Shown: piece by piece, positions 8,422-19,628 of the stretch
Position numbering within the stretch: the stretch's first letter is position 1
Layout of the letters: every line of letters begins with the position of its first letter
Assembly: GCA_043743535.1 (NCBI GenBank)
Contig: JAYTWI010000021.1
Span: 1 to 24,000, forward strand
Reading direction: 5' to 3'
DNA: 24,000 bases
Source of the DNA: Candidatus Moraniibacteriota bacterium
GTDB lineage: Bacteria; Patescibacteriota; Minisyncoccia; Moranbacterales; UBA1568
Notes under the pieces: generated by a model
The model's database searches: none
Told to the model about the DNA's origin: nothing
Seen by the model: only the letters and a program-made list of their open reading frames with translations
Position numbers and translations under genes: made by a program

Positions 8422-8823
8422 TGGTGGAGTTGATGGGAATTGCACCCATGTCCAGAGCAGTTTTTTCAAAATATTCTACAAGCGTAGTCAGCTTTGGGTA
8501 AATGCATGAGGTAGAAAGCAGACAAAATCCGCATACATTCTTTTCTTTGGCAATACGATCACAGAGGGTAAAGAAAAAGAAATACTCTGGTCACGTCTCG
8601 ATAATATGACACCGGAGATTCTTTATCGAGAATCAAGAGTCCGATGGCGACTCACAATTAAGCGAGTGCGAGAGCGAAAGAAGGAGCAAACGCTTGCGCG
8701 AATGCATTCTTTGCCTTGGTGATGAAGTTTGCATTTATCATCGTGAGAAGGATATTTACGACCATCTCCTCAAGGTCGGCTTGCCTATTTTGAAAGTACA
8801 GCCTGTCGAGTCTAAGCAACCCC
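8422..8823 (-). ncRNA. ssrA: tmRNA (transfer-messenger RNA)
   Basis: The minus strand starts GGGGUUGCUUAGACUCGACAGG (compare the conserved GGGGnUGAuUcuGGAUUCGACGGG). It ends GGACAUGGGUGCAAUUCCCAUCAACUCCACCA, which is a T-arm, then an acceptor 3' strand complementary to the 5' GGGGUUG with a G3-U70 pair, then an encoded CCA. It contains an internal tag frame and sits directly downstream of smpB. Length is 402 nt. Confidence 0.9.
8658..8732 (-). other. tmRNA tag-peptide reading frame (ANFITKAKNAFAQAFAPSFALALA, then stop)
   Basis: After ...GAUGAUAAAU the frame reads GCA AAC UUC AUC ACC AAG GCA AAG AAU GCA UUC GCG CAA GCG UUU GCU CCU UCU UUC GCU CUC GCA CUC GCU UAA. GCA AAC is also the E. coli resume sequence. 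The exact resume codon could be a later in-frame GCA. Confidence 0.6.
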
Positions 8824-9661: not shown

Positions 9662-10660
9662 ATGGAAAGTCTTCAATATTCAGACGGAATCGGTTCCCGT
9701 GGACGGAACCCGTTTCTTCTCTTAGTGAAAGGAGATGAAGTTATCGTCTTCCGCGGACAGAGCATTCCCGGTGTGGTAGTGGTGCGAGGCACCGACTACA
9801 CCAAGAATGGTAAGTGGTCGCACACCACTTACCGGCTCCAGTTGGCGGACGGAATCCGCCACATCGTGGGACGGAATGGCTGGGAAACTAGTCGCTTCGT
9901 GGAAGGACTCGCTTTAGCGGTTGGTTGTGCTACGCCCGACACGTGGGCGGACACGGCCAAGGCGTTAGGGATTTCGGTTCCGAGCGCGATGGAGTTCTTG
10001 CGGAGCTGGAGGCAGCAGGAGGCCGAGAAGTTGGACGAGATCGAGCAGTCGTTGGCGAAACTCGAGGAAGTTTCCAAAAAGAAAACTGACTCGGTGATCG
10101 TCACGGTAAGCTTCGGCTCGCCGACCAATCACGCCGTGCGAGAAGGCTACTGGGAATCCCCCAAGTCTATCCCCGGCTACAACGCGGAGATTCGTAAGAT
10201 CGACGCGAGCGGAAGCTGGATCGAGGGGAACATCGTGGTTATCGGGATTTCCGGCACCGTTCTCTCTGTCAAGTACTCGTCCGGCATGCACGGCGGATAC
10301 TACGGAGTCTCCGTCGGGGTGATTCCGGGAACGGAAACCGAGATCCCGCCTTTCGAGACCGCCCGTGAAAAGGCGGCGACGGAAAGCGGACTGCCCAAGA
10401 ATCTCTTCCGAGCCTTCAACGGCGACGAGGAGCGAATTCGCGAGTTCATGGCAAAGGTCGCAAGACTGGATGCCGGAAAACTCGACGAGCACGAGTTCTC
10501 GTGCGGTCGGGCACGCAAGAGCGCGGAAGTGATTCGCGTCTCCGGCGACCTGGAATTCTTCCTCGGTGCTGATCCGTTGGAAGTTTGCGGGTATATCGAG
10601 GAGGTTCACTTCCCCTCGAACGCGCCCAAGACTTCCGACCCCCGAGGCCTCGTCGGCTAG
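9662..10660 (+). CDS. hypothetical protein, no recognisable family (ORF A, 332 aa)
   Basis: AGGAG at 9650-9654 lies 7 nt before ATG 9662. It is a long ORF in a GC-rich stretch with no signal peptide. A central coiled-coil-like segment reads WRQQEAEKLDEIEQSLAKLEEVSKKK. Confidence 0.6.
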   Translation: MESLQYSDGIGSRGRNPFLLLVKGDEVIVFRGQSIPGVVVVRGTDYTKNGKWSHTTYRLQLADGIRHIVGRNGWETSRFVEGLALAVGCATPDTWADTAKALGISVPSAMEFLRSWRQQEAEKLDEIEQSLAKLEEVSKKKTDSVIVTVSFGSPTNHAVREGYWESPKSIPGYNAEIRKIDASGSWIEGNIVVIGISGTVLSVKYSSGMHGGYYGVSVGVIPGTETEIPPFETAREKAATESGLPKNLFRAFNGDEERIREFMAKVARLDAGKLDEHEFSCGRARKSAEVIRVSGDLEFFLGADPLEVCGYIEEVHFPSNAPKTSDPRGLVG

Positions 10661-10751
10661 TGGTAACACCATGCTCGGCGACGCACTCCGCAAAGCCGAA
10701 CTCCGCTAGTCTCGTATTTCCAGCTTGAGGGTCTGGATTAACAAAACCCTC

Positions 10752-10802
10752 TCTGTTTCGGAATGTTTATTCCGACTGATGAGCTCAAAAGAGCGAAACA
10801 GA
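10752..10802 (+). ncRNA. type III hammerhead self-cleaving ribozyme motif
   Basis: 5'-UCUGU U^ UCGGAAU-GUUU-AUUCCGA CUGAUGA GCUC-AAAA-GAGC GAA ACAGA-3'. Helix III is 5 bp (10752-10756 / 10798-10802). Helix I is a 7-bp hairpin (10758-10764 / 10769-10775). Helix II is 4 bp (10783-10786 / 10791-10794). The cores CUGAUGA (10776-10782) and GAA (10795-10797), plus A15.1-U16.1 and G10.1-C11.1, are all present. The cleavage triplet is GUU, with the cut predicted after 10757. Confidence 0.8.
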
Positions 10803-10827
10803 TTGCACTTTGTAAAAAATAAGTTTT

Positions 10828-10934
10828 TCCTCTCCTCGTGAGTAGCACAGTGGATGTCTAAAAAGATTTCTAGTATGCTACTCATGTCGAGGAGCCTCGG
10901 TGCGGAGCACGCATAATTTCACGCTCACGGCCAA
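10828..10934 (+). repeat. structured leader module, copy 2 (upstream of ORF B)
   Basis: Same module as 9521-9627. P1 is CTCCTCG/CGAGGAG (10832-10838 / 10888-10894). P2 is 10839-10847 / 10876-10884. The one P1 difference from copy 1 (U to C) turns a G-U pair into G-C. The second hairpin keeps 5 pairs, including a G-U. Confidence 0.85.
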
Positions 10935-15446: not shown

Positions 15447-15689
15447 ATGAGAGGCGTATTTCTTATCATTGCCCTTTTCTTGGCCGCACACCGTTGGTTT
15501 GCTGACCATGAAGAATTGAAGATCGGTCTTTTTGTACAGGAACAAACGGCCAAAAAACGGCCAATATTCTGTAAGGAACTGATCAAGCATGAAGGACTGT
15601 GTCGTGACACCGCTTCGTTGTGGCGACTCGCGAACGAGTTCATCGCTGGTAACCAGACCCCGAAAAAAGGTGCGGTACCACCTCGCTAG
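15447..15689 (+). CDS. candidate 80-aa hypothetical protein with N-terminal hydrophobic segment
   Basis: GAGAGGA at 15435-15441 lies 5 nt before ATG 15447. Translation starts MRGVFLIIALFLAAHRW.... It is bracketed by two plus-strand terminators (15340-15362 and 15715-15752). No family recognised. Confidence 0.4.
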   Translation: MRGVFLIIALFLAAHRWFADHEELKIGLFVQEQTAKKRPIFCKELIKHEGLCRDTASLWRLANEFIAGNQTPKKGAVPPR

Positions 15690-15714
15690 CAGCAAGCAAA
15701 AATGACGTAACAAA

Positions 15715-15752
15715 GGCAGCCAAAGCAGCGACTTTGGATGCCTTTTTCTTTT
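15715..15752 (+). terminator. rho-independent terminator
   Basis: GGCAGCCAAAG (15715-15725), loop CAGCGA, CTTTGGATGCC (15732-15742). This is an 11-position stem with one mismatch, followed by TTTTTCTTTT. Confidence 0.8.
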
Positions 15753-15852
15753 GGTATCGTTCAAAGACTTAGTCGCCCAATACTTCTATAAGATTTCTAC
15801 TGTTTAAGGTTGGTCACAGATGTCGGCACTTGGTGGTAGTGGAGCGGTGGGG

Positions 15853-15881
15853 TTGATTCGGAGTCGTTTCCCTGCTATATT
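15853..15881 (+). promoter_or_regulatory. sigma70-like promoter of the T-box leader
   Basis: TTGATT (15853-15858), a 17-nt spacer, then TATATT (15876-15881). The predicted start is near 15888, just before the Stem I K-turn. Confidence 0.55.
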
Positions 15882-15892
15882 GCTTCTACAAA

Positions 15893-16068
15893 GGCATTGA
15901 TGAGGCTATCACCTCGGAGCCGCGGGAAGAACACTCGAGAGAGTCAGTAAAGCCCGCCGGGTAGGCCCGTAATAGCCAATGAACAAGGTTCGCCAGTGGG
16001 CGAATAAAGCGAGGTGGTACCACGTTTTCGAACGTCCTTAGCACGATTTTTGTGTTAGGGATTTTTTT
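15893..16068 (+). promoter_or_regulatory. T-box riboswitch (tRNA-Ile-sensing, transcription-termination type, ultrashort Stem I)
   Basis: Stem I is GGC-AUU-GA-UGAGG [CUAUCA] CCUCG-GA-GCC (15893-15921), a K-turn with AUC-A in the apical loop (15908-15911). Stem II is GCGGG/CCCGC (15922-15926 / 15953-15957) with a GAA/AGUA S-turn-like internal loop and an ACUC-GAGA-GAGU tip. An F-box-like CCGUAA follows. Stem III is UUCGCC-AGUG-GGCGAA (15989-16004). The antiterminator is GAGG-[UGGUACC]-ACGUU-UUCG-AACGU-CCUU (16011-16039). The competing terminator is CCUUAGCAC-GAUUUUU-GUGUUAGGG-A-U7 (16036-16068). Confidence 0.85.
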
Positions 16069-16126
16069 GTGTCTTGATTGTCACGGGGCTGTATTATTAT
16101 GTTGCTACGAATCTAAAGAATGTTGT

Positions 16127-16606
16127 ATGATCACACACGCGTACATTGATGGGGCTAACCTGCACAAAGGCGTGCAAGGACTGGGGTGGGAGCTAGATTA
16201 TGCACGTTTTTTTGTGTGGTTACGGGAGAAATATCATATTGAGCGAGCCTATCTTTTTATCGGACTGGTTGTCAAAAACAAAAACTTGTACACTAAGCTC
16301 CAGGAAGCTGGCTATACTTTGGTGTATAAAGAAATTACTTATGACGGCACTGGTAAGGTGAAAGGGAATTGTGATGCAGACTTGGTTCTAAAGGTGACGA
16401 GGGATTTCTATGAGAAGCATTTTGGCCAGGCGGTGCTGGTATCGAGTGACGGGGACTACGCCGGGCTGGTGCAGTTTCTCAAAGAGCAGCACGCTTTCCG
16501 CACGATAGTCTCGCCCAGCAATAATTGTTCTTTTTTACTCCGCAAACTGAATATCCCGATAGTGTATCTTGATACCAAAAGGGGTATTCTGAAGAAGCGA
16601 CCATAA
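16127..16606 (+). CDS. NYN-domain (LabA/DUF88-like, PIN-fold) putative RNase
   Basis: Contains MITHAYIDGANLHKG, KGNCDADLV and VLVSSDGDYAGLVQFL, the acidic-residue pattern of NYN domains. ATG 16127 is preferred over track GTG 16052, which lies inside the T-box terminator stem. Confidence 0.8.
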   Translation: MITHAYIDGANLHKGVQGLGWELDYARFFVWLREKYHIERAYLFIGLVVKNKNLYTKLQEAGYTLVYKEITYDGTGKVKGNCDADLVLKVTRDFYEKHFGQAVLVSSDGDYAGLVQFLKEQHAFRTIVSPSNNCSFLLRKLNIPIVYLDTKRGILKKRP

Positions 16607-16706
16607 AAAGAAAAAGCCCCCAACGGGGACGAACCTCGCCAGGGTCTTTCTCATAGTGATGCCCTTATTATACTCCTTATTATCATTAGCGTCAAGTATA
16701 AAATAT

Positions 16707-19628
16707 ATGTTCAAAAAAGTTGATGCCAAGGTGAGTTTTCCCAAAATGGAGGAGGAGATCCTCCGGTTTTGGAATGAACAAAATATTTTTCAGAAGTCCA
16801 TCGTAGGGCGGCCGGCGGACAAGCCGTATAGTTTCTATGATGGCCCGCCTTTTGCTACCGGGACGCCGCACTATGGGCACCTCGTGGCGAGCGCCATCAA
16901 AGACACCGTGCCCCGCTATTTCACGATGAAGGGTTACCGAGTGGAGCGCAAATGGGGCTGGGACTGTCACGGTCTGCCGATCGAGAATATTGCCGAAAAA
17001 GAACTGGGCATTTCACACAAGAAGGAAATTATCGAGATGGGCATAGCCAAGTTCAACGAAGTTTGCCGTTCTAAAGTTTTGGAATATGTGGCCGAATGGA
17101 AAAAAGTGATGGGTCGTTTCGGACGCTTCGCTGATATGGAGCATGCCTACGCTACGATGGACAAAAGCTATATGGAGAGTGTGTGGTGGGTGTTCAAAGA
17201 ATTGTGGGATCGGGGATTGGTCTACGAAAGTTATCGCACCATGCATATCTGTCCGCGTTGCGAGACGACACTGTCGCAGTCGGAAGTAGCTGAAGGGTAC
17301 AAAGACGTGAAGGATTTGGCGGTGACAGTCAAGTTTGAGCTGGTGGATGAACCTGGTACTTTTGTGCTGGCCTGGACGACCACGCCGTGGACTCTGCCGG
17401 GCAATGTCGCCTTGGCAGTGAACAAGGATGTTACCTATGTCATGATTGAAAAGAAAGATGGTGGAGTTGGTGAGTTGGTGCGGTTCATTGTGGCCAAGGA
17501 TCTTCTCAAGAATATTTTTGGCGAAGAAGGGTACGAAGTCATAGAGGAATACAAGGGAGCTAAGCTGGTTGGAAAGGCCTACAAACCACTCTTTGACTAC
17601 TACGCTAAGGATGAGAAATTAGAAAACCGCGAAAATGGTTGGAAGATTTATCATGCGGACTTTGTCACGACGGACATGGGCACGGGCATCGCCCATGAAG
17701 CGCCAGCTTTTGGTGAAGATGATATGCAACTGGGCAAGGCTAATGACTTGCCATGGGTACAGCACGTCAATATGGACGGCACGATGAAAGCGGAAGTGAC
17801 GGACTTTGCTGGGAGGGCAGTGAAATCTCAAGAAGACCCACAGGCGATGGACGTGGAGATTATCAAGTATCTGGCCAAAGCTGGGACACTTTTTGCCAAG
17901 GAAAAATATGAACACAGCTACCCGCATTGTTGGCGCTGTGATACCCCGCTTCTCAATTACGCTACTTCGTCGTGGTTTGTGAAGGTGACGGATATTAAAC
18001 CCAAGATGTTGGAACTGGCCAAGAATATCAACTGGTCGCCAGCGCATATCAAGGAGGGGCGATGGGGCAAGTGGCTGGAAGGTGCGCGGGACTGGTCTAT
18101 CAGTCGCCAGCGTTACTGGGCCTCGGTGATGCCAATATGGAAATGTGTGTGCGGTGAAATGAGAGTCTTTGGATCGGTAGCGGAACTGGAGGAGGCGAGT
18201 GGCCAGAAAGTGGAGGATTTGCACAAACATATTGTCGATCAAGTGACCGTGCCCTGTGCCAAGTGTGGCGAGACGATGAAACGTATTCCCGATGTGCTCG
18301 ATACCTGGTTTGATTCGGGCTCGATGCCGTATGCACAGGACCATTATCCTTTTGAGAACAAGGAGAAATTTGAGAAAACTTTTCCGGCCAATTTCATCGC
18401 CGAGGGAGTGGATCAAACCCGCGCCTGGTTTTACTACCAGCATGTCATCGGGACGGCCATCAAAGAGAGCAATGCTTTCCAGAATGTGGTGGTGAACGGT
18501 ATTGTGCTAGCGGAAGATGGCAAGAAGATGTCCAAGCGCCTCAAAAATTATCCTGACCCGATGGAAGTGATCAATAAGTATGGGGCGGATGCTCTTCGGC
18601 TGTATCTCCTTTCTTCACCCATCGTAGCGGCCGAGAACCTGAACTTTTCCGAACGAGAACTGGGGGAAATGTCACGCAATGTTTTCCGTATGCTGTGGAA
18701 TTCTTACTCATTTTTCGTTACCTACGCCAATATTGACAACTGGTCACCGAAAGAAAATGCTATCCCCTCGATCAATCTTTTGGATCGCTGGTTGCTTGCG
18801 GAGTTGCAGCTGTTGATAGCGGAGGTGGATGAAGCGATGAGTCACTACGAATTGAACCGTGCTACACGGGCTATTACCCCCTTCGTCGATAATCTCTCCA
18901 ACTGGTACATAAGGCGTAGTCGGAAGCGTTTCTGGAAGAGCGAAGACGACAGCGACAAAGAGCAGGCCTACCAAACGCTCTATACCGTTTTGGTTACTCT
19001 CTCCAAAGTGATGGCACCGTTTACGCCGTTTTTGGCTGAGGAAATTTACAAGAATCTCACTCAAGAGGAATCAGTACACTTAGCTGATTGGCCAGAAGCA
19101 GATAAAGATTTGATTGATGAAGAGTTGAGTCGACAGATGTCACTGGTTCGTGAATTAGTTAATGCTGGCTTACAACAAAGGGCAATTAATAAAATTAAAG
19201 TTCGACAACCACTACTTGATATAAGATGTGGAGAAAAATATAAAGAACTTTTTGAGCAAGGAGACCTATACTTTAAGTACATTGTTACAGAAGAACTGAA
19301 TATCGAAGGATTAAATCTGGATGGCAATCTTTCTAATGAGGAAATTGTGCTTAATACGGAAATTACTCCCGAGCTCAAACTGGAAGGCGAGGCACGGGAA
19401 ATCATCCGGGCGATCCAAGAGGGGCGGAAAAAGGCCGGTTTCAAGGTAGAAGACCGCATAACTTTGGGCTACCGTGGGAAAGAAAATGTGTTCGATAGAT
19501 TCCAAGAGATGATCGCTCATGAAGTCTTAGCGACGACTGTTGTACGAGGAACAATGTCTGATGCCGAATATTCTGAAACAGCTCGGATTGAAGGAGAAGA
19601 ATTTCTTTTCTCTTTGAGGAAGGTTTAA
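16707..19628 (+). CDS. ileS: isoleucine--tRNA ligase, type 2 (HYGH / KMSKR signature)
   Basis: Contains PPFATGTPHYGH, WDCHGLP, the CP1 editing region, WRCDTP and KMSKRLKNYPDP. There is no C-terminal Zn-finger extension. Start moved to ATG 16707 (MFKKVDAKVSFPKMEEEILRFW). No SD is visible. Confidence 0.96.
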   Translation: MFKKVDAKVSFPKMEEEILRFWNEQNIFQKSIVGRPADKPYSFYDGPPFATGTPHYGHLVASAIKDTVPRYFTMKGYRVERKWGWDCHGLPIENIAEKELGISHKKEIIEMGIAKFNEVCRSKVLEYVAEWKKVMGRFGRFADMEHAYATMDKSYMESVWWVFKELWDRGLVYESYRTMHICPRCETTLSQSEVAEGYKDVKDLAVTVKFELVDEPGTFVLAWTTTPWTLPGNVALAVNKDVTYVMIEKKDGGVGELVRFIVAKDLLKNIFGEEGYEVIEEYKGAKLVGKAYKPLFDYYAKDEKLENRENGWKIYHADFVTTDMGTGIAHEAPAFGEDDMQLGKANDLPWVQHVNMDGTMKAEVTDFAGRAVKSQEDPQAMDVEIIKYLAKAGTLFAKEKYEHSYPHCWRCDTPLLNYATSSWFVKVTDIKPKMLELAKNINWSPAHIKEGRWGKWLEGARDWSISRQRYWASVMPIWKCVCGEMRVFGSVAELEEASGQKVEDLHKHIVDQVTVPCAKCGETMKRIPDVLDTWFDSGSMPYAQDHYPFENKEKFEKTFPANFIAEGVDQTRAWFYYQHVIGTAIKESNAFQNVVVNGIVLAEDGKKMSKRLKNYPDPMEVINKYGADALRLYLLSSPIVAAENLNFSERELGEMSRNVFRMLWNSYSFFVTYANIDNWSPKENAIPSINLLDRWLLAELQLLIAEVDEAMSHYELNRATRAITPFVDNLSNWYIRRSRKRFWKSEDDSDKEQAYQTLYTVLVTLSKVMAPFTPFLAEEIYKNLTQEESVHLADWPEADKDLIDEELSRQMSLVRELVNAGLQQRAINKIKVRQPLLDIRCGEKYKELFEQGDLYFKYIVTEELNIEGLNLDGNLSNEEIVLNTEITPELKLEGEAREIIRAIQEGRKKAGFKVEDRITLGYRGKENVFDRFQEMIAHEVLATTVVRGTMSDAEYSETARIEGEEFLFSLRKV

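Follow-up and report, generated by a model that had tools for sequence, protein, structure and literature searches.

The closest described systems to the locus analysed here are the Class III, or 'ultrashort', T-box riboswitches, which are defined by a short Stem I that lacks the double T-loop platform and displays the specifier in an apical loop of 5–6 nt, and which also possess an essential K-turn, a Stem II S-turn and a pseudoknot. Their target is ileS, their hosts are Actinobacteria, and they regulate translation. The original prediction had described ultrashort Stem I ileS T-boxes in these same terms, actinobacterial and translational, and the literature searched says so as well, with one paper stating that Classes III and IV 'mostly' regulate translation. 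Reviews hold that transcriptional T-boxes 'generally require' a long Stem I, and that contact with the tRNA elbow lets the tRNA be captured faster, ahead of the polymerase's arrival at the terminator. In terms of distribution, the TBDB applied its short-Stem-I model to Actinobacteria and to truncated Rfam-model hits only, and older surveys include ileS T-boxes in Deinococcus and Dehalococcoides. No mention of T-boxes in Patescibacteria (Candidate Phyla Radiation, CPR) was found in the literature searched, which also covered Saccharibacteria and Parcubacteria.

The window, i.e. the whole stretch of 24,000 nt of DNA that was analysed, contains an element at 15888–16068 (+) that is confirmed as a T-box leader (Table 1). 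A permissive Rfam search matched the T-box model RF00230 to positions 15888–16042 (+) with 56 bits and an E value of 1.3e-11 locally, or 6.1e-10 when scored over the whole 24-kb window, so that the Rfam comparison suggested with the original prediction returned a significant match, though one under the gathering score. At the curated gathering score of 93 no T-box is called in the window, because just 6 nt stand in place of 76 Stem I model positions; apart from Stem I the alignment runs end to end, retaining the K-turn, Stem II, the IIA hairpin, Stem III and the T-box core. The leader, ~180 nt in length, folds better than 200 of 200 shuffles (z –4.3), and a reading of positions 15600–16400 located all of the predicted structural elements where they had been placed. 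The element is very probably a functional T-box riboswitch for tRNA-Ile(GAU), predicted to govern transcription read-through into an NYN-domain gene and ileS. Weak Rfam matches near the leader (ctRNA_p42d and NsiR1) were dismissed as just terminator hairpins.

Table 1. Coordinates of the T-box leader and its downstream genes in the window.
Feature	Position	Strand	Remarks
Promoter-like site TTGATT-17-TATATT	15853–15881	+	TG ahead of the –10 hexamer; predicted start ~15888
Stem I	15893–15921	+	K-turn, 5-bp helix and apical loop; RF00230 alignment and family alignment
K-turn	GGC 15893–15895, AUU 15896–15898, GA 15899–15900, with GA 15917–15918 and GCC 15919–15921	+	Read from sequence
Stem I 5-bp helix	UGAGG 15901–15905 with CCUCG 15912–15916	+	Read from sequence
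Stem I apical loop CUAUCA	15906–15911	+	Specifier AUC 15908–15910; conserved purine A 15911
Stem II	15922–15957	+	Proximal 5-bp helix; S-turn strands; distal 4-bp helix with GAGA loop; both helices covary
Stem II S-turn strands	AAGAA 15927–15931, AGUAAA 15946–15951	+	Near-invariant in the family
Stem IIA/B pseudoknot	15958–15977	+	Loop GGC pairs with GCC 15975–15977; covariation
F-box-like CCGUAA	15967–15972	+	Part of the IIA/B pseudoknot
Discriminator entry	15985–16008	+	Conserved AAG (RAG) 15985–15987; flanking adenines 16006–16008; motif known from literature
Stem III hairpin	15989–16004	+	6 bp, loop AGUG
Antiterminator	16011–16039	+	A1 16011–16014 with 16036–16039; A2 16022–16026 with 16031–16035
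T-box bulge UGGUACC	16015–16021	+	7 nt, between A1 and A2
Intrinsic terminator	16034–16068	+	Hairpin 16034–16062, 11–13 pairs including G-U, 3-nt loop; U7 16062–16068
NYN-domain gene, 159 aa	16127–16606	+	First gene 3′ of the leader; Pfam; same call in an independent assembly
ileS, type 2 (eukaryote-like) isoleucyl-tRNA synthetase	16707–19628	+	Matches the AUC specifier; start agrees with an independent gene call

The window leader shares with Class I T-boxes (Bacillus subtilis tyrS type; RF00230) the K-turn, Stem II, IIA/B, Stem III and the 14-nt T-box sequence, as well as a mutually exclusive antiterminator and terminator and a default-off logic. It departs from Class I in the design of Stem I, which there is long, with an internal Specifier Loop, AG bulge and distal loop, whereas in the window it is a 5-bp hairpin. 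The decoding features are those of the Class III ileS T-boxes of Mycobacterium tuberculosis, M. smegmatis and Nocardia farcinica: a short Stem I without platform, a basal K-turn, AUC plus purine in a 5–6 nt apical loop, a Stem II S-turn purine string, a IIA/B pseudoknot and a UGGN bulge, with ileS as the target, which in the window is of the eukaryote-like type. Unlike in Class III, the antiterminator is overlapped by an intrinsic terminator, which forms the expression platform in place of a Shine-Dalgarno sequestrator, the host belongs to CPR/Patescibacteria and not to Actinobacteria, and an NYN-domain gene lies between leader and ileS. Class IV T-boxes, with an intermediate Stem I (Actinomyces odontolyticus), are approached by two of the relatives described below (L002 and L101), which keep a small distal hairpin in this 'intermediate' layout, carry AUC-A in a side bulge and have no platform; both differ from the window leader, whose specifier occupies a true terminal loop, and both also end in terminators. 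The window element is a T-box and so is not categorically new. What is new, and well supported, is that a Class III decoding module is joined to an intrinsic terminator, a variant kept across CPR and missed by standard annotation. It adds a tRNA-sensing riboswitch to the Candidate Phyla Radiation, where few regulators are known.

Conservation was evaluated across ileS loci of CPR bacteria. The sequence GGTGGTACCRCG occurs upstream of the gene, on the ileS strand, in 12 of 80 loci. Decoding domains were aligned with MAFFT, the T-box structure was written onto the alignment, and a covariance model (R1; 96 positions, 21 pairs) was built that covers the decoding domain only, with expression platforms examined sequence by sequence. 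R1 finds the decoding domain upstream of ileS, again on the ileS strand, in 27 of the 80 CPR loci (E < 0.02), and these matches include Moran-, Magasanik-, Peregrini- and Saccharibacteria. When 25 members were aligned with the model as guide, standard pairs made up 94.6% of cells, compared to 66% in shuffles and ≤46% when the partners are slid by 1–3 columns, and 18 of the 21 pairs show changes on both sides; the four core pairs of Stem I are 100% paired in the 25 sequences, all with changes on both sides. The same pairs were already visible in the raw MAFFT alignment, made without any fitting to the structure. The specifier AUC is invariant on the 3′ side of the Stem I loop (25/25 members), and where this terminal loop measures 5–7 nt (23/25), AUC is followed by A in 22 of the 23. 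The Rfam T-box gathering score was not reached by any of 16 scanned family members, 15 of which belong to the overlapping-terminator group described below.

A metagenome scan was useful mainly as a control, and less for finding members. Its search pattern comprised the discriminator core only (AGGTGGTACCACG...GTCCTTA), with Stem I left free, and it returned 120 T-boxes, nearly all with the long-Stem-I signature AGAGA...GGUGNAA. The only compact strong matches of R1 in this set were L141 (Moranbacteria-like, 80 bits) and L101; R1 matches in L156 and L179 fall in leaders with a canonical long Stem I. A regular expression for the platform (AG bulge plus distal loop) matched 95 of 113 control T-boxes, and was used qualitatively only, giving nine spurious matches among the 25 family members that fall inside the K-turn and the T-box.

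The K-turn and 5-bp Stem I with the loop CUAUCA, which places AUC and a purine in a terminal loop, are present as predicted, and they are conserved and covarying in the 25 aligned relatives. The C-stem pairs of the K-turn covary and the GA dinucleotides are kept in most members, and the specifier AUC with its purine A stands upstream of ileS, its matching gene. Elements of a distal platform, in which an AG bulge and distal loop form the double T-loop, are missing from the window Stem I, which consists of 5 bp and a 6-nt loop; the expected lack of a platform is thus matched both by the Rfam alignment, which deletes the region, and by promoters that adjoin the K-turn. The start of the element did require revision, as the position originally proposed (15853) is that of the –35 hexamer of the promoter-like site, and the RNA is predicted to begin at ~15888, 5 nt 5′ of the K-turn. 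The promoter-like site was recorded as ending 6 nt upstream of the K-turn; its end lies at 15881, the Rfam match starts at 15888, and the K-turn starts at 15893. Given this proximity, no long Stem I is hidden upstream of the window leader. In most relatives, promoter-like hexamers are likewise found 3–17 nt upstream of the R1 model start, several of them matching 10–12 of 12 positions, and the short Stem I is therefore the real 5′ end of these leaders.

The same evidence bears on whether a conventional long Stem I could be built with sequence upstream of 15888, such that a different codon would reside in an internal Specifier Loop. We found no support for such a fold in the window leader, which had been named at the outset as an outcome that would overturn the prediction, and we consider it barely credible. 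The promoter-like sites end 3–17 nt upstream of the K-turn in the window and in most relatives, 76 Stem I positions are deleted from the Rfam alignment, AUC is the sole invariant part of a loop in which adjacent bases vary, and the synthetase downstream is IleRS in every locus. A further hairpin, observed upstream of the leader at 15710–15754 (+), is followed by a U-tract and accounts for the weak ctRNA_p42d match (27 bits); it is probably the terminator of the upstream transcription unit.

Downstream of Stem I, the predicted Stem II S-turn and F-box-like CCGUAA are both present: the S-turn strands (AAGAA and GUAGAA-type) are near-invariant in the family, and the IIA/B pseudoknot that contains the F-box covaries. 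The IIB pairing does so through at least seven versions, namely GGC/GCC, AGC/GCU, UUGAU/AUCAA, GCGC/GCGC, GCGA/UCGC, CCAG/CUGG and CCG/CGG. These patterns, together with those of Stem I, make it very unlikely that the element is a decaying, non-functional T-box remnant that has lost most of Stem I and persists as a constitutive attenuator. Decay would be in keeping with the Rfam score under the gathering threshold, with the reduced genomes of CPR, and with a few relatives (L034 and L041) that seem to be without the Stem I hairpin and AUC. It does not sit well with a short Stem I that different CPR phyla have kept, each of its pairs showing compensatory changes and AUC staying invariant, nor with an intact S-turn, pseudoknot and T-box core, and the same minimal architecture is functional in Actinobacteria. 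Two kinds of variation in the decoding domain were observed among the relatives. In L034 (2745–2816) and L041 (2635–2728), Stem II, IIA/B and the T-box core are kept and the Stem I hairpin and AUC are seemingly absent. In L003 (2484–2599), L055 (1554–1672) and L074 (2756–2890), an extra hairpin of ~15–25 nt separates the 3′ strand of the C-stem from the 3′ GA of the K-turn, which converts the base of Stem I to a three-way junction.

The unconstrained minimum free energy (MFE) fold of the whole leader contains no Stem I: UAUCACCUC, comprising the Stem I loop and 3′ strand, pairs with GAGGUGGUA in the T-box core. The T-box fold therefore relies on the order of co-transcriptional folding and on the covariation evidence. 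The two segments (15907–15915 and 16011–16019) are perfectly complementary, and by eye an AUCAC/GUGGU complementarity can be seen again in relatives because AUCA resembles the tRNA 3′ end ACCA. The complementarity of Stem I loop and T-box core may be a coincidence or an alternative off-state pairing.

The conserved T-box sequence of the window leader is AGGUGGUACCACG, and the canonical 7-nt bulge UGGUACC (UGGNACC in general form) is found as proposed between A1 and A2. Of the terminator originally described, the hairpin and the U7 were borne out and the 9-bp stem was not, the stem having 11–13 pairs including G-U. The 5′ arm of the terminator includes the 3′ strands of A2 and A1 (common segment 16034–16039), and within it the CCUU said to be common to antiterminator and terminator lies at 16036–16039; the terminator hairpin and U-tract are thus mutually exclusive with the antiterminator. 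When the decoding domain was kept constant, energy evaluation gave –51.5 kcal/mol for the terminator state and –40.3 kcal/mol for the antiterminator state. The terminator is therefore the stabler by ~11 kcal/mol, and the default state would be off, as in canonical T-boxes.

Corresponding platforms occur in 16 leaders, including the window and the Moranbacteria-like loci, each with a U-tract after a hairpin of –11 to –21 kcal/mol whose 5′ arm starts inside the 3′ strand of the antiterminator; the terminator stem sequences differ among these genomes. From the U-tract to the next start codon in the window (16127) there are 58 nt, which leaves no ribosome-binding site sequestered, and the hairpin itself is free of Shine-Dalgarno-like sequence; together these features argue for transcription attenuation and not for Shine-Dalgarno sequestration of the actinobacterial kind. 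All experimentally studied ultrashort-Stem-I ileS T-boxes regulate translation, and a translational T-box as in Actinobacteria would make the 3′ hairpin a sequestrator of the ribosome-binding site and the U-run incidental. We regard this reading as highly improbable in view of the U7 directly 3′ of the hairpin, the distance to the start codon at 16127, the lack of a Shine-Dalgarno-like sequence in the hairpin, and the retention of hairpin and U-tract in 16 of 16 leaders of the class at variable distance to the next gene.

The transcriptional mechanism that we infer, from the binding of tRNA and the distinction between its charged and uncharged forms to termination, would proceed as follows. 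A transcript beginning ~5 nt upstream of the K-turn would show AUC in the apical loop of the 5-bp Stem I, where the anticodon of tRNA-Ile would pair with it. The K-turn and IIA/B pseudoknot would then set the Stem II S-turn purines against the codon–anticodon duplex, an arrangement that may substitute for the absent elbow-binding platform, as in actinobacterial ileS T-boxes. The 3′ ACCA of an uncharged tRNA would pair with UGGU of the bulge and stabilise the antiterminator, permitting read-through by RNA polymerase; with the tRNA charged or absent, the stabler terminator (16034–16062 plus U7) would form and transcription would stop. The host tRNA-Ile is assumed to possess the anticodon GAU and the discriminator A73; a search of the window and 71 CPR-related loci (the CPR ileS loci plus L101, L141 and L201) yielded no tRNA-Ile gene. 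That search gave only tRNA-Ala and tRNA-Arg.

The view that transcriptional T-boxes need an elbow-binding platform would count against a transcriptional reading of the window leader. Published rate constants suggest that co-transcriptional sensing without a platform is kinetically plausible: the short-Stem-I T-box of N. farcinica has a ka of ~1.2 per nM per h, or ~0.3 per µM per s, and the glyQS T-box has ~0.5 per µM per s with the platform and 0.024 per µM per s without it. The CPR family thus offers a test of the kinetic argument advanced in reviews, in which a long Stem I serves fast capture and the short one of Actinobacteria an equilibrium translational switch. In vivo tests are feasible, since some Saccharibacteria can now be cultivated and transformed, and the length of ~180 nt would suit a compact transcriptional tRNA sensor for engineering.

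A different organization of the expression platform was observed in other CPR ileS leaders. Ten of them (L024, L029, L030, L033, L034, L037, L038, L041, L072 and L080) are without a Stem III hairpin, and their MFE fold is a single long hairpin: an extra basal helix, continuing into the U-tract, carries A1, the UGGUACC bulge and A2 on top. This basal helix has its 5′ strand where Stem III would normally be, flanked by the conserved AAG and AA. As folded, the antiterminator of these ten leaders is therefore nested inside the terminator and does not compete with it. L046 and L048 have instead a small separate hairpin followed by U6. Only tentatively, and with some doubt, can these observations be generalized to Patescibacteria as a group using platform-less (Class III-type) transcriptional T-boxes, with a second version in Magasanikbacteria, Saccharimonadia and others that has a nested antiterminator and no Stem III. 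If this were true, contact with the tRNA elbow would not be needed for kinetic, co-transcriptional sensing, and the nested antiterminator would represent a switching logic not described for T-boxes.

The window host was placed by its isoleucyl-tRNA synthetase. The nearest IleRS loci in GTDB genomes, at 74–80% identity, come from Candidatus Moranbacteria and other Patescibacteria MAGs (several of these loci carry other labels in third-party (TPA) assembly records), and the host is therefore a CPR bacterium, Moranbacteria-like, in agreement with the expectation of a genome neither firmicute nor actinobacterial. The window IleRS scores ~790 bits with the 8c8v/1ile group, compared with 337 bits for S. 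aureus 1ffy. The gene argS and a histidine phosphatase gene are encoded upstream of the leader and recO 3′ of ileS, and an independent Logan assembly (run SRR23617269) has identical gene order and gene starts. A mechanical ORF from GTG 16052 was rejected, as it overlaps the terminator; the NYN start at ATG 16127 is backed by the Pfam alignment and the independent gene call.

Control of ileS by the window leader requires read-through across the NYN gene. Within the spacer between NYN gene and ileS (16607–16706), neither a terminator nor a promoter-like site was found on the + strand, and an internal promoter of another type could conceivably be present. It is nevertheless unlikely that the T-box now controls mainly the inserted NYN gene, with ileS transcribed from its own promoter in this 100-nt spacer. 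The NYN gene does separate leader and ileS here and is absent in the closest relatives, L001 and L141, and an orphan minus-strand terminator-like hairpin at 16616–16630 suggests past rearrangement. The spacer is, however, free of + strand promoter-like and terminator-like sites, and seven other leaders of this class hold unrelated small genes in the same slot yet keep the Ile specifier, which argues that ileS remains the selected target. In these seven loci (L003, L007, L055, L060, L066, L070 and L079), the genes between T-box terminator and ileS encode a NUDIX protein, an HD_4-type HD-domain protein, a weak nucleoside deoxyribosyltransferase-like match, a membrane protein and ORFs without a Pfam match. 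The gap from T-box to ileS looks like a recurrent insertion site. The minus-strand hairpin in the window spacer consists of GTCCCCGTTGGGGGC then TTTTTCTTTT; no minus-strand gene ends there, and it may be a relic of the insertion.

Two further RNA features were observed elsewhere in the window. A tmRNA gene (115 bits) is located at 8422–8823 (–), and in L141, the Moranbacteria-like metagenome contig, a tmRNA also lies a few kb from the ileS T-box. In addition, the type III hammerhead ribozyme model RF00008 has a sub-threshold match at 10750–10804 (+), with 39.8 bits where the gathering score is 48.5 (window-wide E 1.5e-5). This match falls in an intergenic gap between an ORF that ends at 10660 and the next ORF start at 10900, and its catalytic core (CUGAUGAG...CGAAAC) is intact, with the cleavage triplet GUU.
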